Shown piece by piece: positions 38,247 to 57,805 of a stretch of DNA of 64,000 bases (position 1 is its first letter; each line of letters opens with the position of its first letter). The position numbers and the translations under genes are program-made. Under the pieces are notes generated by a model, which was not told the DNA's origin, ran no database searches, and was given only the letters and a program-made list of their open reading frames with translations. Source of the DNA: Thermoanaerobaculia bacterium (GTDB lineage: Bacteria > Acidobacteriota > Thermoanaerobaculia > Gp7-AA8); the NCBI GenBank assembly GCA_035468985.1, contig DATISF010000043.1, positions 13,590 to 77,589 of the forward strand, in the 5' to 3' direction.

Positions 38247-38710
38247 CAGAGTTCCCTCTGCCTTCGCGCCAGGCGTTGCAGGAAATCGGAAGCGATGCCG
38301 CCGCTCGTCCGCCGCAGCGTGAGGAAATAGACGGCGATGGCGACGATCCCGCCCATCCATGCCAGCGTTCCGAGCTCCTGCTGGTGCGGGAAAAACGGCC
38401 AGATCATGAACATCAGGGCGCCAATGACGCCGACGATGAGCATGGCCACGCGCTGCGCCTTCGGCGCATCGACTTCACGATCGCAGCTCAGACGAACCGT
38501 GGCTTGATCGGTCTCCGCCGCCGACCACGAGACCGTGCATTCGACCGAACCGGCCGTGGCCACTCCCCTGCGCAACGGCAGGATGAACCTCCGCTCGAAC
38601 GCCCGCGATTCCTTGATCTCGCCGCCGTAAAGGTCGACGAGCTCGCCGATCGTCTCCTCGATGCCCTTCGCCGGAATCCGATCCTCGGTGAACTCCACCG
38701 GTTCAGCCAT
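38246..38710 (-). CDS. hypothetical protein with two C-terminal TM helices
   Basis: 154 aa from ATG 38710 (MAEPVEFTEDRIP...). 8-bp overlap with the peptidase stop. No recognisable domain. Confidence 0.4.
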   Translation of the reverse strand: MAEPVEFTEDRIPAKGIEETIGELVDLYGGEIKESRAFERRFILPLRRGVATAGSVECTVSWSAAETDQATVRLSCDREVDAPKAQRVAMLIVGVIGALMFMIWPFFPHQQELGTLAWMGGIVAIAVYFLTLRRTSGGIASDFLQRLARRQREL

Positions 38711-40394
38711 TCGTTCTCCTGAGCCAGCGAGCGCGCAGTGCGCTGTCGCCTGTGGTCCGCAACGCGATTTTGACACGCGGATCGGAAGATGCGGCCAGCG
38801 TCATCGTGCGAATCACACCCCGGCGGGCGACCAGCATCTCCACCGGCGTGCCGGCATCGACCGATCGGAGCACCGTCGCCACGTCGCTGTCGGTGATGGT
38901 TCGCGTTCCGTCGATCGCCACGATTTCGTCGCCCGCGAGCAGGCCCGCGTTCATCGCCGCTCCGCCGCGCAGTGCGCTGACGACGGTGAGCCGGCCGTCG
39001 TCGCTCCGCAAGGTGGCACCGAGCGAGGGTTCCGTCTGCTGCGGTGACCATTCGATGCAGACGCCGGCGGTGCCGAGGAGCTCCTCGTACGGCAGCGGAT
39101 CGGTCCCGTGCACATAGCGGTCGAAAAAATCGCCGGCATCGCAGACCGAGGCGACGGCCCGCTCGAAACCCGCTTCGTCGAGCGGTTTTCCAGCACGCCA
39201 CAGGATGCGCATGACGTCATCGAGCGACTTCGCGCCGCCGCTCTCGCGGAGAATCAAGAGATCGAGCAATGCCGAGACGATCTCACCCTTGTTGTAGAAC
39301 GAGATCAGCGCGTTCGGCCTGTCGTGCACGCTGCTTTGCAGCCACGAGTCGAAGCTGGCCTGCGATAGCGACAGATGTTCGCGTCCCGGCTGATTCTCCA
39401 GCGTCTCGATCTCGGTCGCCAGATGCTTGAGATAGCGCATCTCGTCCCACAGGCCGGCGCAGGCGAGCGTCAAGTCGCCGTAGTACGACGTCAGGCCTTC
39501 CATGACCCACAGCAGCCGGGTGAGCGTCTCCTGCGAATAGTCGTACGGCGCGAATGCGGAGGGAAGAATCCGCTTGACGTTCCACAGATGAAAGAACTCG
39601 TGCGAGCAGATGGACAGGAAGTGGTCGTAGCCGGTGTCTCCCTTCCTGGTACCGAGGAGGTCGGAGCGCTTGGCGACAATGGAGCAGGAGGCCTCGTGCT
39701 CCACGCCGTGCCATTGGTCGCCGATGTGAATCAGAAACCGATACTCGCGAAGCGGAAGGCCGCCGAACAACGCAGCCTGAGTGCGCACGATGGCGCGAAT
39801 CGGATCGATGTATTGCTCGGTGTCGATCCGTTCGTCATTCACGAAGATCAGATGGATCATCGCTTCGCCTTCGCTGAACGAATGTCGGGTCAGCGAGGGC
39901 GCGGCGATGACCGGTGAGTCGACGAGGTGGTCGTAGTCGCGAGCCAGAAACGTGTTCTCGTCTTCGCGCCGGAGCTGGGTCTCGATGCGCCACTCCGCCG
40001 GGGCGCCGACGCTCAGGCGAGCGTTCTCGCCGCGCAGCCCCTCCACCATCATGAAGAGATTCGAGCCGTTGAAATACGCCTCCTTCTCGTCGAGGAAACT
40101 CGACCCGGCATCGAGCACGCCCGCGTAGTAGCGATAGCGAACGTTGACGTCCTCCCCCGCTCTGGCGTCCACGCGCCAGGAAGACTTCCCATCCTTCCAC
40201 ATCTCTCGCCGCTCGCCGCCGCGGTCCGCGGCACTCCACCGGGTGACGTTCGCGGCGTAGTTCTGAATCAAATAACGCCCCGGTCTCCACGCCGGCAGGA
40301 GAAGGCGGGGCTCATCCGATGCTGCCGTGAACGAGATGGAGATATCGAATTGGCGTTCGGTTGGCTGCTGCCACGAGATCGTGTACGCGATCAT
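38703..40394 (-). CDS. M61-family (glycyl aminopeptidase-like) zinc peptidase with C-terminal PDZ domain
   Basis: HEFFHLWNV zinc motif. Downstream Glu. C-terminal PDZ (GAAMNAGLLAGDEIVAIDG). Confidence 0.65.
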   Translation of the reverse strand: MIAYTISWQQPTERQFDISISFTAASDEPRLLLPAWRPGRYLIQNYAANVTRWSAADRGGERREMWKDGKSSWRVDARAGEDVNVRYRYYAGVLDAGSSFLDEKEAYFNGSNLFMMVEGLRGENARLSVGAPAEWRIETQLRREDENTFLARDYDHLVDSPVIAAPSLTRHSFSEGEAMIHLIFVNDERIDTEQYIDPIRAIVRTQAALFGGLPLREYRFLIHIGDQWHGVEHEASCSIVAKRSDLLGTRKGDTGYDHFLSICSHEFFHLWNVKRILPSAFAPYDYSQETLTRLLWVMEGLTSYYGDLTLACAGLWDEMRYLKHLATEIETLENQPGREHLSLSQASFDSWLQSSVHDRPNALISFYNKGEIVSALLDLLILRESGGAKSLDDVMRILWRAGKPLDEAGFERAVASVCDAGDFFDRYVHGTDPLPYEELLGTAGVCIEWSPQQTEPSLGATLRSDDGRLTVVSALRGGAAMNAGLLAGDEIVAIDGTRTITDSDVATVLRSVDAGTPVEMLVARRGVIRTMTLAASSDPRVKIALRTTGDSALRARWLRRTNG

Positions 40395-40440
40395 TCAGAG
40401 GTCGAGGATCTTATACTTCGAGCGGGGCACGTCCCTCTGA

Positions 40441-42882
40441 ATGACCGACATCCCGGAATTCATCGATCGTTTCCAAGTCACTCGCATCCTCGGTAAGGGA
40501 GGCATGGGAACCGTCTACCTGGCCCGCGACGAGCGGCTGGGACGGTCCGTGGCCATCAAGCTCCTCAACACCGACGAGGGACTCAGCGAAGAAACGCGCA
40601 TCCGCTTTCTGCGCGAGTCGCGGACCGCGGCGTCGATCCGCCAGCAGAACGTCGCCACGATTTACGAGGTCGGCGAGACCGGCGGCCAGCCGTTCATCGT
40701 CATGGAGTACTGCGAGGGAGAGACGCTTGCGCAGCGCCTCCGCCGCAGGCCGCTCGAGGCCGGCGAGTTCCTCAACATCGCCCGCCAGATTGCCGCGGGC
40801 TTGGCGGCCGCTCACGAAGCGGGCGTGATCCATCGCGACATCAAGACCGCCAACATCATCATCGAGCCGAACGGCCTCGTGAAGATTCTCGATTTCGGCC
40901 TCGCCAAACTGCTGCAGCGCGAGATGGGGCGCGAGAAGCCCTCGTTCGCGTCGACCAGCGGACAGTTCTTCGGAACGCTGCACTTCCTCTCACCCGAGCA
41001 GGCCCGGGGCGGAGCCGCCGACGAGCGCAGCGATCTCTTCTCCGTCGGCGTCGTCCTCTATCAGATGGCTTCGGGACAACTGCCGTTCAACGGCGACGGG
41101 CCACTGCTCGTGCTGGAGAAGATCCGGGACGCCGAGCCCGAGCCGTTCGTTCCGCTCGACTCGGCGTTCCCAACTGCAGCCGCGAGGATCATCAGCAAGC
41201 TTCTGCAGAAGAGTCCGGCCGACCGCTATCAGAACGCGCGCGAACTGCTGCACGACCTCGAGGCGATCGACATGCCGGGGCGCCTGAGCTCGCAGCACAC
41301 GCGGTCGATGCTCGGCCGCACCGTTCACCGGCGAGCCGGCTTGCGGGCCACGATCGCCGCCGCGGCGTTGCTCGTCGTCGGCACCGTGGCCTACCTCGTT
41401 CATCGCTACCAGCCGGCGCCGGCGCCGCAACAACCCGCCGCGCCGAACACGCCGATCCGCTCCATGGCCGTACTGCCTCTGGACAACATCGCCAACAACA
41501 CACGCGACGAATTTCTGTCCGTCGGCCTGGCCGACGCTCTGGTCACGAAACTCCAGGGCATCCAGTCATTGCAGGTTCGTCCGACGTCGGCGGTGCTGGA
41601 GTTCCGCAGCAAGAAGGTCGATCCGAAGAGCGCCAGGGAAAAGCTGCAGGTCGACGGAATTCTCGAGGGCCACTTCCTCGCCGCGGGCGATCTCGTGCGC
41701 GTCAATCTTCAGCTCACCGACACGCGCACCGGCTACAACGTCTGGGCGGACACGATCGACGGCAAGCGCGACAACCTGCTCAAGCTCATCGACGATGTTT
41801 CGGCGCGGACCGTCGCCGGCCTCAATCAGCGCCTCGCCCTCGGCACGCTGCAGGTGCGGCCGCATTCCGAAGCCCGGTCGTCGAATCCGCAGGCGTTCGA
41901 GCAGTATCTGAAGGCGCGGGCGCTCACCGGAAGCCTCGTCCCGAAGGACTACAACGCCCAGATCACGGCGCTGCGGAAAGCGATCCAGCTCGACCCGAAC
42001 TTCGCCGCCGCCTACGCGGACCTCGCCATCGCCATCTCTCTGGGGATCGCCCGCGATCTGGAGCGGCAGGACGCTCTGGAAAAAGCGGAGTTCTACGCGC
42101 GCCAGGCCGTGCGGCTCGATCCCGATCTGCCGCAGGCGCATCTCGCGCTGGGGCGCGTGTTCGTCCGCTATCCCGATCGCTTCCGCGAGTCCGTTCGTGA
42201 AGTCCTTGCCTCGCTCCGGCTCAATCCGAGCGACACGCACGCGCTGAACTCACTGGCCACGTATTTCGTTTCCGCCGGCGACATGCAGAAGTTGCAATGC
42301 ATCAGCGACCGGATCGTACTGCTCGATCCGTCATCGAACGAGGCGAAGATCCGAGGCTACTGGTACATCAACGCCGTCGATCCCGAAGGCGCGTTGCAGA
42401 ACTCGAAGTACGCGCTGGCCTCGAAGGACACGGAGCTGGCCGGCCACGACATCCGCGGCGTCGCCTTCGTTCTGCAGGGCAATGTCGTCGGGGCTGAACA
42501 GGAAGCGAATGCCCTTTCGACGCTCTTCCCGAAGCACTACCTCGGAAAGAGTCTGCGGGCGATGATCGCGGCGGCAAAGGGCGACCGCACCGCATCGGAA
42601 GCGGCGATCCGCTCGTTCGAAGAGGAAGCAAACCGCAACCACTGGGCGGCGATCCGCGTGGCGCTGTGCTACGCGAAGCTCGGCGATCAGCAGCAGGCGG
42701 TCGCCTGGACGAAGCGTTCGTTCGAGCTCGGCCATCACAGCTGGTACGAACTGATCAAGCATCCGTGGTTCGTGCCGCTGCAGAGCAACAAGGACTTCCA
42801 GCAACTGGTGGCGAAGGTGAAGGCGGATATTGACGACGTGCAGGACGACGTGACGGGCGTGTATCAGTTGATCTGTAAGTGA
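40441..42882 (+). CDS. Ser/Thr protein kinase with TM anchor and C-terminal TolB-like/TPR repeat region
   Basis: GKGGMGTVYLA, HRDIKTANIII, DFGLA, a TM segment around 300, then TPR-like repeats. Confidence 0.8.
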   Translation: MTDIPEFIDRFQVTRILGKGGMGTVYLARDERLGRSVAIKLLNTDEGLSEETRIRFLRESRTAASIRQQNVATIYEVGETGGQPFIVMEYCEGETLAQRLRRRPLEAGEFLNIARQIAAGLAAAHEAGVIHRDIKTANIIIEPNGLVKILDFGLAKLLQREMGREKPSFASTSGQFFGTLHFLSPEQARGGAADERSDLFSVGVVLYQMASGQLPFNGDGPLLVLEKIRDAEPEPFVPLDSAFPTAAARIISKLLQKSPADRYQNARELLHDLEAIDMPGRLSSQHTRSMLGRTVHRRAGLRATIAAAALLVVGTVAYLVHRYQPAPAPQQPAAPNTPIRSMAVLPLDNIANNTRDEFLSVGLADALVTKLQGIQSLQVRPTSAVLEFRSKKVDPKSAREKLQVDGILEGHFLAAGDLVRVNLQLTDTRTGYNVWADTIDGKRDNLLKLIDDVSARTVAGLNQRLALGTLQVRPHSEARSSNPQAFEQYLKARALTGSLVPKDYNAQITALRKAIQLDPNFAAAYADLAIAISLGIARDLERQDALEKAEFYARQAVRLDPDLPQAHLALGRVFVRYPDRFRESVREVLASLRLNPSDTHALNSLATYFVSAGDMQKLQCISDRIVLLDPSSNEAKIRGYWYINAVDPEGALQNSKYALASKDTELAGHDIRGVAFVLQGNVVGAEQEANALSTLFPKHYLGKSLRAMIAAAKGDRTASEAAIRSFEEEANRNHWAAIRVALCYAKLGDQQQAVAWTKRSFELGHHSWYELIKHPWFVPLQSNKDFQQLVAKVKADIDDVQDDVTGVYQLICK

Positions 42883-44333: not shown

Positions 44334-45464
44334 ATGGTCCTCTTCAATCACGCGACACGCGAGATGACGGCGAAGATCGTCTATTACGGTCCCGGGCTCT
44401 GCGGGAAGACGACGAATCTCATGGTCATCTTCGACAAGCTCGACCCGAAGTCCAAGGGGAAGATGCTGTCGCTGGCTACCAAAACCGACCGCACACTCTT
44501 CTTCGACCTGCTGCCGGTCGATATCGGCAAGGTCGGCAATTTCAACCTCAAGATCCAGCTCTACACCGTCCCAGGACAGGTCTTCTACAACGAGACGCGC
44601 AAGCTCGTTCTCAAAGGCGCTGACGCGATCGTTTTCGTCGCGGACTCGCAGAGGTCCATGGTCGACTCGAACAAGGAGAGCTTCAAGAATCTCCTCGAGA
44701 ACATGAACGAGAACCAGATCGACCCCGAGGACACGCCGATCCTGATCCAGTACAACAAACGCGACATCCCCGGCGTGCCGCCCGTCGACGAGCTTGAAGA
44801 GCTGGTCGGCCTCGAAGGCTATCCGCACACCGAGGCCTCGGCTCTCAAGGGCGACGGAGTCATGGAGACGTTCAAGACGGTCTCCAAGATGACGGCCAAG
44901 CACCTCTTCAATCGGCTCAAGGGAAAGAGCGAACCGATCGACCGGAAGAAGGCCGCCGCCACGGCGAAGGCCGAGAAGAAGAGCGGCAAGGCGAAGGCCG
45001 CGCCCGCACCGGAACCACCTCCGTTCGAGGAGGCGCCGCCGTTGACATCGTTCCCTGACACGGTCCCGTTCCCCGAGGCCAGCGAGAATCCGCCTGACGC
45101 GGGATACGAGAAGATGGAAGAGGTCTCACTCGAACAACTTCTGCAGGAAGGGCGCGAGCGGCCTGCGACATTTGCCGGGAACATCGCCGTCCCGATCGAG
45201 GTCGAAGACGTCGAAGAGCTCGGAGCCGAGGAAATGGTCGACGAGCCTGTTGCGGTGGCAGTGATGGACGAGCCGCAGCCGTCGAAAAAGAAGGCTTCTG
45301 CCGCCGCTGCACCGGCTGGACGGGGTCAGGCCGGCCTCGAAGCGCAGGTCCGCGATCTCGAGCAGCAGATCGAAACGCTCAAGTCGAAGCACCGCGACGA
45401 GCTCGAAGCGATCCTTCGCCAGCTCGGCGAGCTCACGGCACGCGTTCGCCAGCAGCTCGGCTGA
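44334..45464 (+). CDS. mglA: MglA-family Ras-like GTPase with ~180-aa low-complexity/coiled-coil C-terminal extension
   Basis: AKIVYYGPGLCGKTTNL, DRTLFFDLLP, LYTVPGQVFY, VADSQ, QYNKRD all match M. xanthus MglA blocks. The extension is Pro/Glu/Ala-rich with a terminal coiled coil. Confidence 0.7.
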   Translation: MVLFNHATREMTAKIVYYGPGLCGKTTNLMVIFDKLDPKSKGKMLSLATKTDRTLFFDLLPVDIGKVGNFNLKIQLYTVPGQVFYNETRKLVLKGADAIVFVADSQRSMVDSNKESFKNLLENMNENQIDPEDTPILIQYNKRDIPGVPPVDELEELVGLEGYPHTEASALKGDGVMETFKTVSKMTAKHLFNRLKGKSEPIDRKKAAATAKAEKKSGKAKAAPAPEPPPFEEAPPLTSFPDTVPFPEASENPPDAGYEKMEEVSLEQLLQEGRERPATFAGNIAVPIEVEDVEELGAEEMVDEPVAVAVMDEPQPSKKKASAAAAPAGRGQAGLEAQVRDLEQQIETLKSKHRDELEAILRQLGELTARVRQQLG

Positions 45465-45508
45465 TGTACAATTTCCCGGCCCACAACTTATTCGGAGGAA
45501 AATCAACC

Positions 45509-46297
45509 ATGCGTCGTACTCTGCTGGCAGGTCTCTGTCTGGTCATTGCTCTGTCCGGCTGTAAAGCGAAAGAGCTCGCCGAAAAGGCGGCTATCTCCCG
45601 CGATCTCGATAAGCACGGCACGACCGATCTCATGAAGAAGGTCGCCGATGACAAATACACCCCGCCGGCGGACGGCAAGCTCACCGACGCCCAGGTCCAG
45701 ATGTACCTGAAGGTCCGCGAGCACGAGAAGCAGATCGCGCAGGTCGCGAAACAGGAAGCGCAGCAGCACGCTGACGCCGCGAAGAAAGCCGGCGAGAAAT
45801 CGATCTCCGGCATGATGGAGAGCTTCAAGACGCTCGGATCGGTCGCCGACCTCGTCACCGCCGACATCCGCGCCGCCAAAGACCTCGGCTACAACACCCA
45901 GGAGTACCTCTGGGTGAAAGGCCAGATCATGGCCGTCAGCACCGCGGCGATGACCGAGAAGATGATGACCGCCGGCAACGCCGCGCTCGACAACATGTAC
46001 GACCAGACGAAGAAGGCGTATGAGCAGGCCACCGACGAGACGCAGAAGAAAGCGCTCGGCGAGAGCCTGGCCGAATTCGACAAGCAGAAGAAGGATCGCC
46101 AGGCCGAGGCGGCGAAGAAGGACCCGGCGCTCGAGTACAACAAGCAGGTGGTCTCGAAGTACGAGAGCGCGCTCAATGCGTTCACGCAGGAGCTTGCGAA
46201 GTACGAAGACAAGCCGGGCGAGACCGAGAAGAAGATGCAGGATTGGCAGAAGGATATGGACAAGGCCGCGGCCGACGCCAAGAAAGGCCAGCAGTAG
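45509..46297 (+). CDS. lipoprotein, Lys/Glu/Ala-rich helical, hypothetical
   Basis: Lipobox LVIALSGC. GGAGGA SD upstream. 262 aa of low-complexity helical sequence. Confidence 0.5.
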   Translation: MRRTLLAGLCLVIALSGCKAKELAEKAAISRDLDKHGTTDLMKKVADDKYTPPADGKLTDAQVQMYLKVREHEKQIAQVAKQEAQQHADAAKKAGEKSISGMMESFKTLGSVADLVTADIRAAKDLGYNTQEYLWVKGQIMAVSTAAMTEKMMTAGNAALDNMYDQTKKAYEQATDETQKKALGESLAEFDKQKKDRQAEAAKKDPALEYNKQVVSKYESALNAFTQELAKYEDKPGETEKKMQDWQKDMDKAAADAKKGQQ

Positions 46298-47599: not shown

Positions 47600-50500
47600 A
47601 TGAGACGCATTCGCATCGCGGTCACCATGTGTGCCGCGATCAGCATCGCAGCCGTCGCTTACGGCGTCTGTCCGACCATCACGCTCGGGCCGCGCTTCCT
47701 CTCTGATGCCACGCTGGGCCAGCCGTACTCGCAGCTCCTCACGCAGAGCGGCGCGGCGGTGCCCTTCACCTACGCCATCGTTTCGGGAGCGCTCCCGACG
47801 GGAATGCGCCTCAACCTCGACCGCATCGAAGGATCTCCTGCGGCAGCCGGTACCTTCACGTTCGATATCAAGCTGACCGACACGAATGGCTGCACCGGCG
47901 TGAAGACGTACACGCTCAAGGTCAACGATCCGAACGGACCGACCTGCACGCCGCTCACGATCTCGCCCGGTACGCTTCCGCCCGGAGGGGTCGGACAGCT
48001 TTACAGCCAGAAGATCGTCGCCATCGGCGGCCAGGGTCCCTATTCGTTCACGATCAGGAGCGGCGACTTCCCGAGCGGCCTCGCTCTCTCCGGAAATCTG
48101 ATCACCGGCTTCCCGAGCCGGGCCGGCACTTTCTCTTTCGATCTCGGCGTCATCGACGCGAAATCGTGTCCGGGCACGCAGCACTATGACCTGCAGATCG
48201 TCGATGCCGGATGCCCGACGGACGCTCCCGTGATCCTCGCGCCCGCTGACGGCGCGACGGCCGACGGCACTCGCCCGATCGCGTTCTCCTGGACCGGCAT
48301 CGCCGGAGCAACCGGGTACGAGGTCCTCGCCTCGACCGACAATGGCGCGACGTTCAGCACGGTCGCCACGATCTCCGATCCGACCGTGAGCAACGCAAAT
48401 GTGTCTCTCACGAAAGGCGCATACCTCATCGTCGTGCGCGCGATCATCAGTCCGACGTGCTCGACACGTTCGGGACCGATCAAGCTGACGGTCGGCGTTC
48501 CGCAGCCGCAGTGTGGAACCGGCAGCATCGATCTCAGCGCACCCTCGAATGGCACGACGAGCTCGTCGCCGGTTCGCTTCGCGTGGTCGGCGCTCACCGG
48601 AGCGAAGGCGTATCGACTCTGGTTCGGCGTCGACGGCGTGGCACCGACGATCATCGCGCGGACGACGGACACGAGCGTCTCGCAGTCCCTGCCGAGCGGC
48701 TCGGCGACCTGGTTCGTCGAGGCGCTCTTCGACGATTGCCCGTCGATCTTCTCCGGCCGCGGCACATTCACCGTCTCGAAGTCGGCGAGCTGCAGCAGCG
48801 AGGCGGCCACGCTCGTCTCGCCGTCAGGCGCCACCGTCCTCAGTCCGCTCACGCTCGACTGGAACGAGGTCGCGGGAGCGATCGGCTATCGCATCTGGGT
48901 CGGCTCCGCCGGCCAGTTCGTCCAGGCCGGCTTCACCGTCCTGACGCAGATGAAGGTGTCGCTCGCGCCGGGAGCGTACTCCTGGTACGTCGACACGCTG
49001 TTCAGCGGATGCCCCGCCATCCCGTCGCAGCCGGCGACCTTCACGATTCCCGATGCAGGCACGAGCTGCAGCGGCCAGGCTCCGTCGATCATCACGCCGG
49101 CACCGGGTTCGACCGCGCCATCCCCTGTGACATTCAGCTGGACGCCGGTGGCCGCCGCCACGCAGTACCGCGTCTTCGCTTCGCTCAACGGCGGAAGCCT
49201 GCAACTCCTCGGCTCGACGGCAGACACGACCCTGAAGATCTCCCTTCCGCCCGGAGATATCGTCTGGCTCGTCGAGGCGACGTTCAAAGGCTGTCCGGCA
49301 ACGCGTTCCGCCGCGGGCCGGTTTACCGTTCCACGCGCGGCCAACTGTCCGACGGGCAAACCGCAACTGATCTCACCCTCCGATGGAGCGGACAACGTAA
49401 CCAGTCCTGTGACTCTGTCGTGGTCCCCGGTGAGCAATGCCCTTCGCTACATCGTCGTCACCCGCGCGCGCAACGGCGCGCCCACCGTCCTCGGCGAAAC
49501 GGCTGCAACGCAACTGCAGCGCGACCTTCCCGCCGAATCGGTCGAATGGTACGTGATTGCTCTCGGAGCGGGATGCGATCCCGTGCTCTCGGACAAGGCC
49601 ACGTTCACCATCCCCGTTCCGCCGGGATGCACGACCCGTCGTCCGCACCCGCTCGCTCCCGCGGACGACTCGATCAACATCGCGTCGCCGGTTCACTTCG
49701 CATGGACGAAGTCACCGGGCGCCTCTTTTTATCGCCTCTTTGCGGGCGCGCCGGGCGAAGAGCCGTTGCTCGTTGGAACCACGAACATCACGGAATTCAC
49801 GGCGGCAATGCCGGCCGGGCCGACTCGCTGGTTCGTTCAGGCCGTGTTCGACTCATGCCCGTCGCTCTTCTCGGCGCGCAACGACGTGACGGTGGCCTCG
49901 AAGCCCGCTGCCTGCACGACTCCCGAGCGGCCGGTCGCGCATGTCGTCGCGCAGGTCCTTTCCGGCTCCGAATACAACACCCGCTGGACAGGCGTGACCA
50001 ACACCAGCGTGTATGAGGTGCAGGAATCGCCGAAAGCCGACTTCTCCAACGCGACGACGCAGACCTTGACCGGCGTGAGCGCGACGTTCTCGCACACCGT
50101 GACCACTCCGGCCGTTTTCTACTATCGCGTTCGCGCCATCAGCTCGTGCAGCGATGATCGCAGCGCGTTCTCGAGGGCTGTCTCCACGCGCGTCATCCCG
50201 CCGAATACGCGCGACGCCAAAACGCGCGGCACGGTTGAAATGGGCGCGCAGAACCTCGTGGTGCAGACTCTTACGATCCCCGGTTCGTCGACGCAAACGA
50301 GTTTCGTCGCCACGACGGACAAGCCCTGGCTCACGGTCTCTCCGTCGTCCGGCGCCGTCCCTCCGGGCGGCGTGACGCTGAACGTCCTCTCCGATCCGAA
50401 GGCCCTCAACGTGGGCGCAAACCAGGGAACCGTTCGAATCACGTACGCGCAGCCGGGCGGCAGCGGCATCGAGCCGAATGCCACCACGCCGCCGACGGCG

Positions 50501-51997
50501 ATCCCGATCTCGATCAGCCTCGTCACGCCGGTCGCACCCGACACGAAGGCATCGCCACCGCCCGACTCGCTGATCATCCCCGCCGTTGCCCATGCCGCCG
50601 GCGCGAATCAATCGCAGTTCCAGTCGGACGTCCGGCTGGCGAACCTCTCCTCGCAGGCGCAGAGCTATCTCATCAACTTCACGCCGACGGCGACGGACGG
50701 AACACAAACCGGCACGACGACGACGATCCAGGTCGATCCCGGCCAGACCGCGGCGCTCGACGACCTGCTGTCCAGCTTCTTCGGCACCGCCGCGGATGGC
50801 AGCGCGGCGGGCATGCTCGAGATCCGGCCGATCGCCACCACTTCGTCATCGAGCATCTTCAGCGCCGTTCCGAACAGCGCGCTTGCCAGCATCGCCTCGA
50901 GCCGCACCTACAACGTCACATCGCAGGGAACGTTCGGCCAGTTCATCCCGGCCGTCCCGTTCTCGCAGTTCGTCGGGAAGGGCAGCATCCTCTCCCTGCA
51001 GCAGATCGCACAATCGTCCGCGTACCGGACGAACTTCGGGCTGCTCGAGGCCTCGGGCGAGCCCGCGACGGTCGTCCTGCACGTCTACGACAAGTCCGGC
51101 AATCTGCTCGCCGACATCCCCGAGTCGCTCCTGCCCTCCGAGCACCTGGCGCTCAACGGACTGCTCTCCGCGAACAACATCACGCTCGACGACGGCCGTG
51201 TGGAAGTCGAAGTCACCTCCTCGACGGGCAAGGTGTCCGCGTACGCATCGGTTCTCGACAACCTGTCGAACGATCCGCTGCTCGTTTCGCCGGTCCTGAA
51301 GTCGGCCGTGTCGTCGAATCGGTACACGATCCCGGGCGTCGCCTACACGAACGGAATCGCGAACTGGCGCAGCGACGTCCGCCTCTACAACGCCGGAGCG
51401 AACAGCGTAAGCGCCACCCTCTTGTTCTATCCGCAGGGCGCACCTGCCTCGCCGCAGGCACGCACGGTCAACATTGCGGCCGGGGAGACCAAGGGCCTCG
51501 ACAACATTCTCAACACGACCTTCGGCATCACCGATCCGAGCGCGGGCGGTTCGATTCTCGTGACCACGCCTTCGGCAAGCAGCATCATCGCCAGCGCCCG
51601 CACCTACACGCCGGTCGATGTCGGAACGGTGGGACAGTTCATCCCGGCAGTCACCGCGGCCGATTCCGTCGGCGCCGGCGATCGTTCGCTGCAACTCCTG
51701 CAACTCGAGAGCTCGGATGCGTTCCGCACCAACATCGGACTCGTCGAGACCACGGGGAGCTCAGCCGTTGCCGAAGTGTCACTGATTCTGCCCGATTCGA
51801 AGGTCACTCCCGTGATCTCCTTCACACTCGCCGCGAACGAATTCGTGCAATTTCCACTTTCCGCATTTGGACTCACGGACTCGATTTACAACGCGCGTGT
51901 ATCCATCCATGTCATAGACGGAAGTGGGAAAGTAGCAGCGTATGGCTCTTTGGTCGACAATCTCAGCAAGGACCCGACTTATGTTCCGGCTCAATAA
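47600..51997 (+). CDS. giant secreted multidomain protein: 2 putative-Ig (He_PIG-like), 7 Cys-bracketed FN3-like repeats, BACON-like domain, 2 copies of an unassigned ~220-aa module
   Basis: 1465 aa. Signal peptide. LP.G..L repeats. ~90-aa repeats with C...F.W...Y.V...W.V.A.F..C. Tail repeats carry SDVRL.N, GT.GQFIPAV, FRTN.GLVE, GKV.AY.S..DN. Ends DPTYVPAQ. Confidence 0.7.
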   Translation: MRRIRIAVTMCAAISIAAVAYGVCPTITLGPRFLSDATLGQPYSQLLTQSGAAVPFTYAIVSGALPTGMRLNLDRIEGSPAAAGTFTFDIKLTDTNGCTGVKTYTLKVNDPNGPTCTPLTISPGTLPPGGVGQLYSQKIVAIGGQGPYSFTIRSGDFPSGLALSGNLITGFPSRAGTFSFDLGVIDAKSCPGTQHYDLQIVDAGCPTDAPVILAPADGATADGTRPIAFSWTGIAGATGYEVLASTDNGATFSTVATISDPTVSNANVSLTKGAYLIVVRAIISPTCSTRSGPIKLTVGVPQPQCGTGSIDLSAPSNGTTSSSPVRFAWSALTGAKAYRLWFGVDGVAPTIIARTTDTSVSQSLPSGSATWFVEALFDDCPSIFSGRGTFTVSKSASCSSEAATLVSPSGATVLSPLTLDWNEVAGAIGYRIWVGSAGQFVQAGFTVLTQMKVSLAPGAYSWYVDTLFSGCPAIPSQPATFTIPDAGTSCSGQAPSIITPAPGSTAPSPVTFSWTPVAAATQYRVFASLNGGSLQLLGSTADTTLKISLPPGDIVWLVEATFKGCPATRSAAGRFTVPRAANCPTGKPQLISPSDGADNVTSPVTLSWSPVSNALRYIVVTRARNGAPTVLGETAATQLQRDLPAESVEWYVIALGAGCDPVLSDKATFTIPVPPGCTTRRPHPLAPADDSINIASPVHFAWTKSPGASFYRLFAGAPGEEPLLVGTTNITEFTAAMPAGPTRWFVQAVFDSCPSLFSARNDVTVASKPAACTTPERPVAHVVAQVLSGSEYNTRWTGVTNTSVYEVQESPKADFSNATTQTLTGVSATFSHTVTTPAVFYYRVRAISSCSDDRSAFSRAVSTRVIPPNTRDAKTRGTVEMGAQNLVVQTLTIPGSSTQTSFVATTDKPWLTVSPSSGAVPPGGVTLNVLSDPKALNVGANQGTVRITYAQPGGSGIEPNATTPPTAIPISISLVTPVAPDTKASPPPDSLIIPAVAHAAGANQSQFQSDVRLANLSSQAQSYLINFTPTATDGTQTGTTTTIQVDPGQTAALDDLLSSFFGTAADGSAAGMLEIRPIATTSSSSIFSAVPNSALASIASSRTYNVTSQGTFGQFIPAVPFSQFVGKGSILSLQQIAQSSAYRTNFGLLEASGEPATVVLHVYDKSGNLLADIPESLLPSEHLALNGLLSANNITLDDGRVEVEVTSSTGKVSAYASVLDNLSNDPLLVSPVLKSAVSSNRYTIPGVAYTNGIANWRSDVRLYNAGANSVSATLLFYPQGAPASPQARTVNIAAGETKGLDNILNTTFGITDPSAGGSILVTTPSASSIIASARTYTPVDVGTVGQFIPAVTAADSVGAGDRSLQLLQLESSDAFRTNIGLVETTGSSAVAEVSLILPDSKVTPVISFTLAANEFVQFPLSAFGLTDSIYNARVSIHVIDGSGKVAAYGSLVDNLSKDPTYVPAQ

Positions 51998-54900
51998 GCG
52001 GAGCGCCGTATTTGCGGCGCTCGTCGCGCTGGCCCTGTTCGCGGCGCCCGGTTACGCACAGTGCCCGCTGGCGGCACCGACCCCGGTCTCGCCGGCCAAC
52101 GGCGCGACAGGAGTCCAGAGCAGCGTGACGTTCACCTGGACCGCGGTTCAGGGTGCGACCAGCTACGAGGTCTGGGCATCGGCCGACGGCGTCAACTTCG
52201 TCCAACTGGGCACTTCGAGCACGACGACACTGATTTCCGACATCTACAGCGGAATCAACGTCGAGTGGTACGTCGTCTCGGTCAACAGCAGCTGCAAGAG
52301 CCTCGAGTCATTCCACTTCCGATTCAGCACGGGCGGATGCACCGGTCCGGCGACCGATCTGATCTTTCCCGAGGACGGCAATACCTTCGTCTCCTCGCCC
52401 GTCCGTTTCTTCTGGAGCTCCGTGCCTTCCGCGGACTTCTACCGGTTGTGGATCAACCAGTGGGATGCTGACGCCAAGGAATGGCTCGGCTGGGAATATT
52501 GGGACGAGACGTACCGGACCGAGTCGCGGATCTACCTCGAGCCGAGGTATTACGCATGGGAGATCGAGACGGTATTCGCGGACTGCGACTCCAACTACTC
52601 CGAACCCAATATCTTTCTGGTTCCGCAGGCGGCGAACTGCCCGACGGAAAAGCCGAAGATCCTGACGCCGGCCAGCGGAAGCTCGACGAAGTCGCCGGTG
52701 ACGCTGTCGTGGTCCGCACTGCCGGGCGCGATCAACTACGAGGTGTGGGCGTCGCTCGATAACGGCGATCTGCAATTCGTCGATGAGACGCCGTCGAATT
52801 CGATGGTGGTCTACGTCGGCTACGGACACGTCGAATGGCTCGTGGTCGCCCAGTTCAACGGATGCAACGACGCGATCTCTGACACCGCGACGTTCGATGT
52901 CGCGTACGACCCGGCGTGCGATCACTACGCGCCATACCCCATCGTTCCCGCTTACGGCGTGAACAACGCACCGACAAGGCTCGACTTCGTGTGGACTCCG
53001 GTCGACGGAGCCTCGCGCTACAACGTCTGGGCGTCGGTGAATGAAGGTGACGCCTTCATCGTCGGTTCAACCACCAACACGCGGCTGTCGGCGGATGTCC
53101 AGGCCGGAGTGATCGCCTGGGCCGTGGAAGCCGAATTCAACGGCTGCTCGCCGACGCTGTCGCCGGTCTCGGTCTTTGTGGCCGAGAACGCCACGGCCTG
53201 CACTCCACCGGCCGCGCCGGACATCTACATCAGTCCAGCCGCGACATCGGGCGACCAGTTCTTCATCCTCTGGAGCCCGGGCACCAACACGTCCGGGTTC
53301 GAGCTGCAGGAATCGACCGATCCATCATTTGCCGGCGCGAACACGCGCGCAGTGAACGATGTCCTCATCGGACTGAGCCATCAGGTCACCACGCCGACGC
53401 GCTACTACTATCGCGTCCGATCGAAGAGCAACTGCAACGCTGGCGACGGACCGTACTCCGATGCCGCATCGATCGTCGTGCAGCCGCTCGTCGCGCAGAC
53501 CGGCGACCGCGCCGGAACGATCGCCGCGTACGGAACGCAGGCGGGCGTCATTCAGAAGATTCACATCCCCGGATCGGCCAGCGGGCCGAGCGCCGAATCG
53601 CGTGGACTCGCGCAAGGCTTCACGGCCACGGCCGACGAACCATGGATCACCATCACTCCGTCGAGCGGCACGATTCCGCCCGAGGGAATCGATCTCACGA
53701 TCACCAGCGATCCCCGCAAGCTGGCGGTCGGGACGAGCACCGCCACCGTCCGCATCACCACGACCGCCTCGGCCGGAACGCCGACGTCGGTTCCCGTCTC
53801 GATCAGTCTCGTCACGCCGGTGTCGCCCGATGCCGGAACCTCTCCGCAGCCGAATTCGCTGATCATCCCCGCCGTCGGCCACGCCGCCGGCGCCGGAACG
53901 ACGTTCGAGTCGGACGTGCGCATCACCAACACCTCCGCGCAGGCGATGAAGTACCTGCTCAACTTCACGCCGACCCGGTCCGACGGCACGAAGAGCGGCC
54001 AGCAGGCCACGATCCAGATCGATGCCGGAGAGACCACCGCGCTCAACGACATCCTGAAGAACTTCTTCGGCTTCGCGGGCGCGAACGACAGCGTTCTCGG
54101 CGTTCTGGAGATCCGCCCGATCTCTTCGGTCTCTTCGTCCAACGGCTCGCAGGGCAACGTCACGTTCGCGTCGAGCCGCACGTTCGCAGTCGCTCCCCAG
54201 GGAACATACGGACAGTACATCCCCGCGATTCCGTTCTCGTCATTCATCGGACGAGACTCGCGTATCACGCTCTCGCAGATCGCCAACGCCGGCGGATATC
54301 GCACCAACCTCGGCCTCGTCGAGGCGGCCGGCGAATCGGCCACCGTTCACTTCACGGTTCGCAATGCCGCGGGCGCGGTCGTTTCGGAATTCGACAAGAA
54401 CCTCATGCCCGGCGAGCACCAGCAGTTCGCGCTCGATTCGCCCGTCGACAACGGCCGGATCGAGGCGACGGTGACCTCGCTGTCCGGAAAGGTGACCGCG
54501 TACGCTTCCGTCGTCGACAACAAGACCAATGACCCGATGCTGATCCTGCCGGTGAATACGGCAAACATCTCCGCGAGTCGTTACGTTCTGCCGGGGATGG
54601 CGCAGACCTCGGGCGCCACGAACTGGCGCAGCGACGTCCGCCTCCTGAACGCCGGTTCGTCACCCGCGCAGGCAACGATCTCGTTCTACACCATCGGCAG
54701 CACGACCCCCGAAACGGTGACCAGGACGATCGAGGCCGGGCAGATGCTCGTGTTCGACGAGGCCCTCCGATCGTTGTTTGGAAAATCGAACGACGCGGGC
54801 GCGATTGTCGTCGGCACGACATCCGACTCGAAGATCGTCGCATCGGCGCGAACGTACAATCAGACGGCGACCGGAACGTACGGCCAGTTCATCCCTGGCC

Positions 54901-55250
54901 TCACGGCCGGCGATGGCGTCGGCAAGGATGACCGCGCGCTGCAGGTGCTGCAGGTGGAGTCGTCCGATCGTTTCCGCACGAATCTCGGTCTGGTCGAGCT
55001 GACCGGCAAAGAGGTGAACCTCGAGATCGCCGCCTACACGCCCGACTCGAAGGTGTCGGTGTATATACCGTGGCACCTCGGCCCGAACGAATTCGTTCAG
55101 ATCAACGACATCCTGGGGCGCATGGGCATCCCGAAGGCCTACAACGCCCGCATCTCGATGAGGGTCACCGGTGGCGACGGCAAGATCAGCGGTTACGCAT
55201 CGCTCATCGATAACCGCACGCAGGATCCGACCTACGTGCCCGCTCAGTAA
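51981..55250 (+). CDS. giant secreted paralog of the preceding gene (5 FN3-like Cys repeats, BACON-like, 2 copies of the same C-terminal module)
   Basis: Signal peptide MFRLNKRSAVFAALVALALFAAPGYAQ. Repeat PQAANCPTEKPKILTPASG nearly identical to PRAANCPTGKPQLISPSDG in the upstream gene. Ends DPTYVPAQ. Start overlaps the upstream gene's last 17 bp. Confidence 0.7.
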   Translation: MFRLNKRSAVFAALVALALFAAPGYAQCPLAAPTPVSPANGATGVQSSVTFTWTAVQGATSYEVWASADGVNFVQLGTSSTTTLISDIYSGINVEWYVVSVNSSCKSLESFHFRFSTGGCTGPATDLIFPEDGNTFVSSPVRFFWSSVPSADFYRLWINQWDADAKEWLGWEYWDETYRTESRIYLEPRYYAWEIETVFADCDSNYSEPNIFLVPQAANCPTEKPKILTPASGSSTKSPVTLSWSALPGAINYEVWASLDNGDLQFVDETPSNSMVVYVGYGHVEWLVVAQFNGCNDAISDTATFDVAYDPACDHYAPYPIVPAYGVNNAPTRLDFVWTPVDGASRYNVWASVNEGDAFIVGSTTNTRLSADVQAGVIAWAVEAEFNGCSPTLSPVSVFVAENATACTPPAAPDIYISPAATSGDQFFILWSPGTNTSGFELQESTDPSFAGANTRAVNDVLIGLSHQVTTPTRYYYRVRSKSNCNAGDGPYSDAASIVVQPLVAQTGDRAGTIAAYGTQAGVIQKIHIPGSASGPSAESRGLAQGFTATADEPWITITPSSGTIPPEGIDLTITSDPRKLAVGTSTATVRITTTASAGTPTSVPVSISLVTPVSPDAGTSPQPNSLIIPAVGHAAGAGTTFESDVRITNTSAQAMKYLLNFTPTRSDGTKSGQQATIQIDAGETTALNDILKNFFGFAGANDSVLGVLEIRPISSVSSSNGSQGNVTFASSRTFAVAPQGTYGQYIPAIPFSSFIGRDSRITLSQIANAGGYRTNLGLVEAAGESATVHFTVRNAAGAVVSEFDKNLMPGEHQQFALDSPVDNGRIEATVTSLSGKVTAYASVVDNKTNDPMLILPVNTANISASRYVLPGMAQTSGATNWRSDVRLLNAGSSPAQATISFYTIGSTTPETVTRTIEAGQMLVFDEALRSLFGKSNDAGAIVVGTTSDSKIVASARTYNQTATGTYGQFIPGLTAGDGVGKDDRALQVLQVESSDRFRTNLGLVELTGKEVNLEIAAYTPDSKVSVYIPWHLGPNEFVQINDILGRMGIPKAYNARISMRVTGGDGKISGYASLIDNRTQDPTYVPAQ

Positions 55251-56705: not shown

Positions 56706-57805
56706 CCGAGGTCCTCACCACGACCAACACGCACGGGCTCTCCAGGGACGAGCTGCTCGAGATCGATTACTACCTCCGCCTCACGCGCACGCTCGAGGAG
56801 CGCCTGGTTGCGCTCTTCCGCCAGACGAGGGTGATCGGCGGCCTCTATCGATCGCTGGGACAGGAAGGCGAATCCGTCGCGGCCGCGTATGCCCTCGAGT
56901 ACGAGAAGGGTGACGTCGTGCAGCCGCTGATCCGCAACCTGGGATCGATCCTCGTCGCCGGCGCGAAGCCGGTGGACATCCTCAAGCAATACATGGCCAA
57001 GGGCGACAGCCCGACGCGCGGCCGCGAGCTGAACATTCACTTCGGCCATCCGGCCACCGACGGCTTCATCGGCCAGATCTCGATGCTCGGCGACATGATC
57101 CCGGTGATGGCCGGAATCGCGCTGGCGGGACGGATGCAGAAGAAGGAGCTCGTCGGCCTGGCGTTCATCGGCGACGGAGGCTCATCGACCGGGGCGTTCT
57201 GGGAAGGGATGAACTTCGCGTCCGTGCAGAAGCTACCGCTGGTCGTGATCGTCGAGAACAACGGCTACGCGTACTCGACGCCGACGACGAGGCAGAGCGC
57301 GGTGAAGAGGCTCGCCGACAAGGCGGTTGGCCTGGGATGCTTCGGCGACACCGTCGACGGCAACGACGTGCTCGCGGTGTACGGCGCGACACGCCGTGCG
57401 GTCGAGCGCGCGCGACACGGCGAGGGCGTCACGCTCCTCGAAGTGAAAACGTTCCGCATGAAGGGACACGCCGAGCACGACAACCAGGCCTACGTTCCGC
57501 CCGAAATGATCGAGGAGTGGAAGGCGAAGGACCCGATCCCCCGCTTTGAGCGCGTGCTTCTCGATATCGGCGCCGCAAAGACCGAGGACTTCGAATCGAT
57601 CCAGCACAGGGTGAAGAGTGAAGTCGATGCGGCCACCGACGAAGCCGAGCGTTCGCCGATGCCGCAGCCGGACGAAGTGGCGAGAGGTCTGTTCGCGGGC
57701 GACGGATATTGGGATCAACCGAATTCCGAATCCCGAATCCCGGATCCCGAATCCCGGATCCCGGATCCCGAATCCCGAATCCCGAATCCCGAAAACAATG
57801 CCTGA
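56702..57805 (+). CDS. 2-oxo-acid dehydrogenase E1 component, alpha subunit (TPP-dependent)
   Basis: TPP-binding GDGGSSTGAFWEGMNFA...VIVENNGYAYST. GTG start overlapping the lpdA stop. C-terminal tail ESRIPDP x3 encoded by a 7-nt repeat. Confidence 0.8.
   Translation: MTEVLTTTNTHGLSRDELLEIDYYLRLTRTLEERLVALFRQTRVIGGLYRSLGQEGESVAAAYALEYEKGDVVQPLIRNLGSILVAGAKPVDILKQYMAKGDSPTRGRELNIHFGHPATDGFIGQISMLGDMIPVMAGIALAGRMQKKELVGLAFIGDGGSSTGAFWEGMNFASVQKLPLVVIVENNGYAYSTPTTRQSAVKRLADKAVGLGCFGDTVDGNDVLAVYGATRRAVERARHGEGVTLLEVKTFRMKGHAEHDNQAYVPPEMIEEWKAKDPIPRFERVLLDIGAAKTEDFESIQHRVKSEVDAATDEAERSPMPQPDEVARGLFAGDGYWDQPNSESRIPDPESRIPDPESRIPNPENNA
57709..57785. repeat. heptanucleotide microsatellite (CCGRATC) x ~10-11
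   Basis: ccgaatt ccgaatc ccgaatc ccggatc ccgaatc ccggatc ccggatc ccgaatc ccgaatc ccgaatc ccgaaaa, immediately 5' of the E1beta ATG (57798) and inside the E1alpha 3' end. Confidence 0.9.

Follow-up and report, generated by a model that had tools for sequence, protein, structure and literature searches.

Giant tandem paralogues of Thermoanaerobaculia with a predicted C-terminal tetrad of ASRAH-type β-sandwiches

A stretch of 64,000 nucleotides from an uncultured, soil-type Thermoanaerobaculia bacterium (phylum Acidobacteriota; assembly GCA_035468985.1, contig DATISF010000043.1, positions 13,590 to 77,589 of the forward strand; hereafter, the window) carries two adjacent genes, A and B, that encode giant exported repeat proteins of 1465 and 1089 amino acids (aa). 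Both proteins end in two tandem modules, and structural modeling predicts that each module is a dyad of β-sandwiches with the fold of the ASRAH superfamily (TM1070/ASRT-like). The module is a divergent, unannotated branch of the known ASRAH/DUF5719 superfamily, found here in a new architecture and in a new phylum. A and B are old tandem paralogues that belong to a large family of giant proteins specific to Thermoanaerobaculia. With moderate confidence, we favor a role of the tetrad and of the BACON-like domain that precedes it as a glycan-binding cassette, which would tether the two proteins to the envelope or matrix of the cell that makes them.

Fold and relationship of the C-terminal modules

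The limits of the modules were obtained with a profile built on the four modules of A and B, and correspond to residues 990–1234 and 1241–1465 of A, and to residues 639–873 and 880–1102 of B (numbering of the open reading frames, ORFs). A first-pass annotation of the DNA had described two tandem C-terminal modules in each protein with a series of shared motif blocks, and these blocks are indeed present when the modules are aligned. Identity between the first modules of A and B amounts to 53%, compared with approximately 37% between first and second modules, which indicates that the duplication of the module is older than the duplication of the gene. No further copies of the module were found in the 64-kb window.

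A model of A residues 985–1465, a region of 481 aa that covers the four units, was computed with AlphaFold2 (AF2) from an alignment of 122 sequences. The model is all-β, with a predicted local distance difference test (pLDDT) value of 92.6 and a predicted template modeling (pTM) score of 0.91, and consists of five strands, a short helix and three further strands in an arrangement that is repeated four times. Because the same strand pattern recurs four times, each module of ~230 aa is interpreted as a dyad of eight-stranded sandwiches of ~115 aa (units a and b), and the protein as ending in a tetrad. Profile–profile alignments of a units against b units with hhalign are weakly significant (E = 2.2e-5, 1.6e-5 and 7.4e-4), and place WRSDVRLYN opposite FRTNIGLVE.

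A Foldseek search retrieved TM1070 (Protein Data Bank, PDB, code 1nc7) with a probability of 1.00 and a TM-score of 0.77, and the model of a single unit (unit 2b) superposes on TM1070 over 102 of 116 residues. TM1070 and ASRT define the ASRAH superfamily of eight-stranded sandwiches, for which sugar binding has been predicted (De Souza, Iyer & Aravind 2009, PMC2739507). Its families comprise solo cytoplasmic proteins, secreted tetrads fused to amidases in Chloroflexi, and dyads in actinobacterial cell-surface lipoproteins whose genes adjoin WhiB, a glycosyltransferase and a zincin-like gene; members other than the solo ones are always found as dyads or tetrads (PMC2739507). The modeled units of A are eight-stranded sandwiches superposable on TM1070/ASRT, and the four of them are organized as two a–b dyads. 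The module that the first-pass annotation was unable to assign does, therefore, find a place once its structure is modeled.

The ASRAH fold has recognizable residues on its first two strands. Strand 1 opens with a polar residue followed by Trp, and strand 2 carries ligand-contacting residues and a nearly invariant Asn at its end, before a tight turn, with the signature SHEshChhN (PMC2739507). In the a units, an invariant Asn closes a strand 2 of nine residues (WRSDVRLYN), again before a tight turn. Strand 1 of unit 2a starts with Arg-Tyr in the window, and with Lys-Trp, Arg-Trp or Arg-Tyr in the homologues, and strand 1 of units 1a, 1b and 2b starts with Ser-Leu or similar residues.

At the sequence level, the modules remain unmatched in Pfam and NCBIfam scans of the full A and B proteins, and PF07100 (ASRT) has no match in Pfam scans of the window proteins or of their homologues. 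When the first module is searched in isolation, it matches PF18986 (DUF5719) weakly, with E = 5.6e-4 and 19.6 bits, the cut-off being 26.2 bits; the same family gives no match on the full window proteins at E ≤ 1, or on the 481-aa tetrad at E ≤ 0.01. DUF5719 is matched by 61 of 122 homologous C-terminal fragments at E ≤ 0.01 (best value 1.7e-10), is exceeded in its cut-off by the homologues P0014 (38.9 bits) and P0006 (29.9 bits), and appears in the NCBI label "DUF5719 family protein" of a few homologues from Thermoanaerobaculia. ASRT, the sequence of which was checked against the PDB entry, has DUF5719 as its only other Pfam match (E = 0.069). Since both ASRT and half of the homologues match DUF5719, an indirect sequence link exists between the module and ASRT. 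Profile searches of the PDB returned only chance-level matches, to a phosphotransferase system IIA protein (E = 0.94) and to legume lectins (E = 0.3), which were discarded.

Judged from these profile matches, the window proteins are divergent relatives of DUF5719 and not formal members of it. Given the gene context that the 2009 ASRAH study describes, DUF5719 is probably its family of actinobacterial dyad lipoproteins. The earlier statement that the module fits no known family stands insofar as the curated Pfam thresholds are not reached and the isolated module has no significant match to a characterized family, DUF5719 being uncharacterized; the predicted ASRAH fold and the DUF5719 signal of 19.6 bits speak against it. 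A search of the literature on DUF5719, ASRAH and surface proteins of Thermoanaerobaculia yielded only the 2009 ASRAH paper (PMC2739507), and no paper that mentions DUF5719 or describes the present family.

Terminal octapeptide, protein family and age of the gene pair

Both A and B end in the octapeptide DPTYVPAQ. The peptide forms a strand in the tetrad model (E475–479) and in the single-unit model (E116–120), with a pLDDT of ~95. It aligns with DPLLVSPV, the end of module 1, and its positional counterpart in the a units is their closing strand, GQFIPAV. TM1070 and ASRT stop a few residues past the equivalent strand, and, because nearly all structured residues of unit 2b superpose on TM1070, DPTYVPAQ must be part of the superposition. 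Column conservation of the octapeptide is 0.8–0.9, similar to that of the closing strands GQFIPA and NDPLLV. The exact sequence ends 85 of 150 diverse representatives, all 150 of which terminate 0–3 residues past the last module, and approximately 90% of 120 fragments share an end of this type. According to the models, DPTYVPAQ is the closing eighth strand of the fourth sandwich, not a sorting tag.

The first-pass annotation had read the octapeptide as a conserved sorting or processing signal. The ends of the two proteins are identical, as described, but the surroundings of the peptide do not resemble those of such a signal. Neither a transmembrane or hydrophobic segment nor a basic tail follows DPTYVPAQ, and no CTERM, LPXTG or type IX secretion system (T9SS; Por_Secre_tail) model of Pfam or NCBIfam matches A or B. 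Gene neighborhoods were analyzed in the best 80 of 463 stretches retrieved by a search of species-representative genomes. In these 80 loci, no sortase, peptidase or transporter recurs beside the genes, including the loci of a ~3800-aa paralogue described below; only housekeeping synteny is seen among close orthologues, and nothing is held in common with the ~3800-aa paralogue loci. Conservation of the octapeptide owing to the start of gene B, which overlaps its codons in gene A, was also considered and rejected, because B and most family members share this end with no overlapping gene.

An exhaustive profile search for the module retrieved 7008 clusters (50% identity) at E ≤ 1e-3, and 1686 at E ≤ 1e-30. 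The best 150 representatives range from 512 to 5870 aa, and in all of them precisely two modules occupy the C-terminal end. The best 80 loci all belong to Thermoanaerobaculia or to Acidobacteriota metagenome-assembled genomes (MAGs), with host ORFs of 1100 to more than 3800 aa and with two or three paralogues per genome visible in several MAGs. The parts that precede the modules, here called passengers, vary: among eight members scanned they include He_PIG (six copies), DUF11 (11 copies), Ig_7, DUF4214 and Peptidase_M10, and four of the eight have a BACON_2-like domain directly ahead of the tetrad.

Individual members show the range of these architectures. P0228 (1656 aa) has matrixin/Peptidase_M10-like, DUF4214 and immunoglobulin (Ig) domains before the BACON-like domain and tetrad, and its metallopeptidase domain shows that passengers are not restricted to repeat arrays. 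In P0075, a fragment of 326 aa, an N-terminal segment of pyruvate phosphate dikinase (PF01326) is joined directly to the last part of module 1 and a full module 2; a chimera of assembly or gene calling on a contig of 1.5 kb is the likeliest cause. A second type of paralogue (loci L067–L070, L074, L075 and L078; partial copies in L072, L079 and L080) accompanies the A-type genes in the same MAGs. Its ORFs, of ~3800 aa or more, fill 10–11 kb upstream to the edge of the locus and end in NDPTF/YVPAQ, and they lie beside a gene for a small winged-helix-like regulator and one for a membrane protein, not beside thrC/lpdA.

The N-terminal parts of A and B largely agree with their first description. 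Signal peptides were recognized on both proteins, of the Sec type as read from the residues, and both run into x-C-P; no canonical lipobox was seen in the N-termini of A and B on the same reading. The pair of He_PIG-like domains had been described as confined to the first protein, and Pfam places it in A and not in B. The five to seven Cys-bracketed FN3-like repeats of the earlier description number seven in A and five in B, and all 12 align to the consensus proposed for them, with Trp, Tyr and the bracketing Cys conserved. Both proteins exceed the Pfam cut-off of 27 bits for the FN3-like family GH85_C (42 bits in B, 27.6 bits in A). A BACON-like domain follows, as had been noted; a Pfam match exists in both proteins, but it lies below the cut-off of 25 bits (20.5 and 16.2 bits for BACON_2 and BACON in B). 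A BACON_2 match directly before the tetrad is also found in the distant members P0123, P0228, P0264 and P0165, and reaches 25.6–25.8 bits, just over the cut-off, in P0165 and P0264.

Near-identical repeat pairs had been cited as a sign of recent tandem duplication of the two genes, a view that the alignments contradict. The repeats in question, A5 and B3, have 38.6% identity over the repeat, and no two repeats exceed 42%. Residues 396–1465 of A are 42% identical to B over 1094 aa, and the best DNA repeats between the two genes have 63–77% identity. B is closer to its orthologues in L033, L062, L059 and L053, which occupy the second place in tandem pairs of other MAGs (48–53%), than to any A-type protein (41–42%). 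The low identity of A and B, and the greater proximity of B to B-type genes elsewhere, indicate that the pair is old and has been conserved, and rule out recent duplication or gene conversion.

Proposed role and competing explanations

In the mechanism that we propose, A and B would be exported through the Sec pathway, with subsequent cleavage of the signal peptide ahead of x-C-P, and each Ig/FN3-like domain would be oxidatively stapled by its Cys pair. TM1070 and ASRT are tetramers in which the walls of the clefts lie at the dimer interface (PMC2739507). The four ASRAH units of a single chain would pack as one rigid body, as the pTM of 0.91 suggests, in an intramolecular version of the TM1070 tetramer. 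The invariant polar residues of strand 2 (Asp and Arg of SDVRLxN in the a units, at D1010/R1012 and D1259/R1261 of A; Arg and Asn of RTNxGLxE in the b units, at R1143/N1145 and R1376/N1378) appear, from the strand register, to lie on the same face as His25 and Cys29 of TM1070, and may form four carbohydrate-binding clefts. The cassette of BACON-like domain and tetrad would then tether the protein to peptidoglycan, to lipopolysaccharide/O-antigen or to exopolysaccharide, with the variable arrays projecting outward. The constancy of the cassette, set against the variability of the passengers, is the reason to favor a tethering role.

Several points weigh against this interpretation. Sugar binding has the status of a prediction throughout the ASRAH superfamily, its founding members included, and the packing as a pseudo-tetramer and the position of the clefts are themselves deduced from the pTM, the strand register and the published description of the superfamily (PMC2739507). 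The b units have a Glu at the end of strand 2 in place of the hallmark Asn. An hhalign comparison of the units with a two-sequence profile of TM1070 and ASRT is non-significant (E = 0.027 and 0.017), with Asn placed opposite Asn in the top alignments; searches of the PDB with sequence profiles of the module and of single units recovered neither 1nc7 nor 2ii7; and the window modules fall under the DUF5719 gathering threshold of 26.2 bits. The stop at Gln in approximately 90% of the members is stricter than most structural strands need. Sec-exported proteins of 1100–5800 aa would still have to cross the outer membrane, and might instead stay in the periplasm.

The fold-based argument for sugar binding would apply equally if the tetrad were an outward adhesive tip, directed at external polysaccharide, at plant or microbial debris or at another cell, with the N-terminus held on the cell. 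Many giant adhesins of Gram-negative bacteria have their ligand-binding domains near the C-terminus. We regard this arrangement as possible but rather unlikely, given that the N-termini, those of family representatives included, read as signal peptides of the cleavable type with no canonical lipobox or recognizable anchor, and that a part shared without change by thousands of proteins with different passengers looks more like an anchor than like a determinant of specificity. A different emphasis is placed by an explanation in which the BACON-like domain and tetrad serve secretion or display through an undescribed, lineage-specific outer-membrane machinery, as an analogue of the C-terminal domain (CTD) of T9SS substrates and not primarily as a lectin. 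The constancy of the cassette beside highly variable passengers, one of them with a metalloprotease domain, would suit such a function, as would the obligatory free C-terminus, the confinement of the family to one class, and the presence of signal peptides in proteins with no known route across the outer membrane. However, no transport genes are common to the types of locus, the cassette measures ~600 aa, far above known secretion tags, and few paralogues per genome are visible in the 80 loci, so that we consider this explanation improbable.

The tetrameric state of TM1070 and ASRT, with cleft walls at the dimer interface (PMC2739507), could also hint at a module for oligomerization or fiber assembly that pairs chains, for instance A with B, which are co-encoded and probably co-translated, and which have tandem counterparts in other MAGs. 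The four units of a single chain already pack with one another in the prediction, most members of the family are not in tandem pairs, and the invariant residues are polar, not those of a hydrophobic interface; pairing of chains by the tetrad is thus very unlikely. Least likely of all is the reading of DPTYVPAQ as a dedicated signal for a sortase-, exosortase- or peptidase-like enzyme. Its high conservation, its fixed position and the conserved Asp-Pro bond that it holds are what such an enzyme would call for, but the peptide is a high-confidence strand inside a fold that superposes nearly wholly on TM1070, the internal strands GQFIPAV and DPLLVSPV are similarly conserved, and the tail, sorting models and recurrent processing enzyme that would accompany a signal are missing from the proteins and from the 80 loci.

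A combined role can be envisaged as well. The BACON-like domain, the four ASRAH units and the free DPTYVPAQ-COOH end might constitute a class-specific display system, at once export determinant and glycan anchor, a proposal that we regard as rather unlikely. If true, such a display system would play a part comparable to that of the T9SS CTD or of SLH domains, with another fold and with interchangeable passengers (Ig/FN3 arrays, DUF11 arrays and a metalloprotease).

Thermoanaerobaculia are abundant and almost entirely uncultured, and the family is likely to represent a large share of what their cells expose. Placement in the ASRAH/DUF5719 fold points to four putative polar glycan clefts, and extends ASRAH beyond solo cytoplasmic proteins, Chloroflexi amidases and actinobacterial lipoproteins, to a new phylum and a new architecture. 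It also removes a misleading lead, as the apparent sorting motif is modeled as a structural strand. In kind, neither the fold nor the theme of a giant repeat protein that closes in a sugar-binding sandwich is unexpected.

Gene context and comparison with known systems

The first-pass annotation had reported adjacent genes with overlapping ends and products of 1465 and ~1089 aa, in agreement with the ORFs and with public gene calls on the European Nucleotide Archive metagenome contig ERZ27272673:k141_1005672, which includes the window; the products called there have exactly 1465 and 1089 aa. The ORF of gene B from its first ATG spans 51942..55250 (1102 aa). Translation more probably begins at the ATG at 51981, where AAGGA lies 8 nt upstream, in agreement with the public call. 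The resulting overlap is 17 nt (51981–51997), and places the start codon of gene B inside the Thr-Tyr-Val codons of the terminal octapeptide of A, in another frame. The two genes probably share a single transcript, from which they would be translated together; terminator and promoter scans of the gene A/B region gave nothing beyond the shuffled expectation. The ORFs of tandem pairs also overlap in L033, L053 and L059, and do not overlap in L062. The closest genome orthologues of gene A are 64% identical (L001). The features of both genes are listed in Table 1.

Table 1. Window coordinates of genes A and B and of their predicted domains
Feature	Coordinates	Strand	Evidence and remarks
Gene A	47600..51997	+	ORF; 1465-aa giant exported repeat protein; same call on public contig
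Predicted Sec signal peptide of A, MRRIRIAVTMCAAISIAAVAYG then VCP...	47600..47665	+	Basic n-region, then hydrophobic core; read from sequence
Two He_PIG Ig-like domains of A, aa 24–190	47669..48169	+	Pfam He_PIG E = 4.5e-13, two stretches; Cys 24/98 and 116/190
Seven Cys-bracketed FN3-like repeats of A, aa 205–850	48212..50149	+	Cys pairs; repeat alignment; weak GH85_C match
BACON-like β domain of A, aa ~870–975	50207..50524	+	BACON_2 E = 2.3e-4, 21.4 bits (cut-off 25)
A module 1, unit a, aa 990–1117	50567..50950	+	Predicted ASRAH-type sandwich; strand 2 QSDVRLAN; hidden Markov model (HMM) limits, AF2 model, conservation
A module 1, unit b, aa 1118–1234	50951..51301	+	Strand 2 YRTNFGLLE; closing strand DPLLVSPV
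A module 2, unit a, aa 1236–1349	51305..51646	+	RY opens strand 1; strand 2 WRSDVRLYN, then AG; top hhalign alignment to TM1070/ASRT puts Asn opposite Asn, non-significant (E = 0.027)
A module 2, unit b, aa 1350–1465	51647..51994	+	Predicted fourth sandwich
DPTYVPAQ of A	51971..51994	+	Modeled eighth strand of fourth sandwich; holds the gene B start codon in another frame
Gene B	51981..55250	+	1089-aa paralogue; 42% identical to A 396–1465; probably translationally coupled to A
Predicted Sec signal peptide of B, MFRLNKRSAVFAALVALALFAAPGYA then QCP...	51981..52061	+	Read from sequence
Five Cys-bracketed FN3-like repeats of B	52062..53435	+	Cys pairs; GH85_C E = 1.3e-10, 42 bits, three stretches; repeat alignment
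BACON-like domain of B	53613..53798	+	BACON_2 E = 4.7e-4, BACON E = 0.01; both sub-threshold
B module 1, units a and b, ORF aa 639–873	53856..54560	+	HMM domain E = 6.6e-100; 53% identical to A module 1
B module 2, units a and b, ORF aa 880–1102	54579..55247	+	HMM domain E = 1.3e-110; ends in DPTYVPAQ (55224–55247)

The neighbors of the pair in the window are housekeeping genes, and encode an Arf/MglA-like GTPase, a lipoprotein, a pyridoxal phosphate enzyme, LpdA and the α- and β-subunits of a 2-oxoacid dehydrogenase E1. The genes of the GTPase and of the lipoprotein lie in 44334–46297. The GTPase (376 aa) has a long C-terminal extension that is rich in Pro, Ala and Glu and of coiled-coil type. 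The ORF of the lipoprotein, which has 277 aa and no Pfam match, starts at the last base of the GTPase gene (45464), and the public call starts at a downstream ATG. This lipoprotein is found upstream of the giant gene in 41 of the 80 related loci, which could reflect plain synteny or a functional link. The region further upstream (38703–42882) encodes a Peptidase_M61 with PDZ domains and a Ser/Thr kinase of 813 aa with TPR (Pfam marks of the public calls). At the junction of the E1-α and E1-β genes (57719–57793), CCGAATC is repeated 10.7 times with 92% matches; in the E1-α frame the repeat encodes a tail of PESRIPD type, and slippage by 7 nt could shift the frame.

A comparison of the units with TM1070 (1NC7) and ASRT (2II7; PF07100) points to elements that may be common, namely the invariant Asn that ends a nine-residue strand 2 before a tight turn in the a units, and the pair of a polar and an aromatic residue that opens strand 1 in unit 2a; the end of the domain directly after its last strand is shared. 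By contrast, there is no significant direct sequence similarity, and the putative cleft residues are Asp/Arg or Arg/Asn here and His/Cys in TM1070/ASRT. TM1070 and ASRT are solo cytoplasmic tetramers, whereas the predicted units of A and B would be extracellular, with four per chain at the end of giant proteins.

A parallel in organization exists with the ASRAH tetrads of Chloroflexi N-acetylmuramoyl-L-alanine amidases (family 2 in PMC2739507), which are likewise secreted and have four tandem units. Those tetrads are predicted to bind peptidoglycan, and so to position another domain (PMC2739507), the same logic that we propose for the cassette. The companion domain is an amidase in Chloroflexi, whereas Ig, FN3 and DUF11 arrays take this place in the present family, which belongs to another phylum; the two are compared by description only. 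With DUF5719, the only Pfam family that gives a sequence signal on the module, the dyad organization is shared, and here the units form a tetrad that ends giant proteins. A and B differ from the family 3 ASRAH lipoproteins in that they have no lipobox and lie outside a neighborhood of WhiB, glycosyltransferase and zincin-like genes. The T9SS CTD, SLH domains and the PEP-CTERM/exosortase system differ from the tetrad in fold and size, and A and B have no corresponding transmembrane helix, model match or linked sorting machinery. The likeness to these systems is an analogy of logic only, in which a constant C-terminal element is combined with variable surface proteins.

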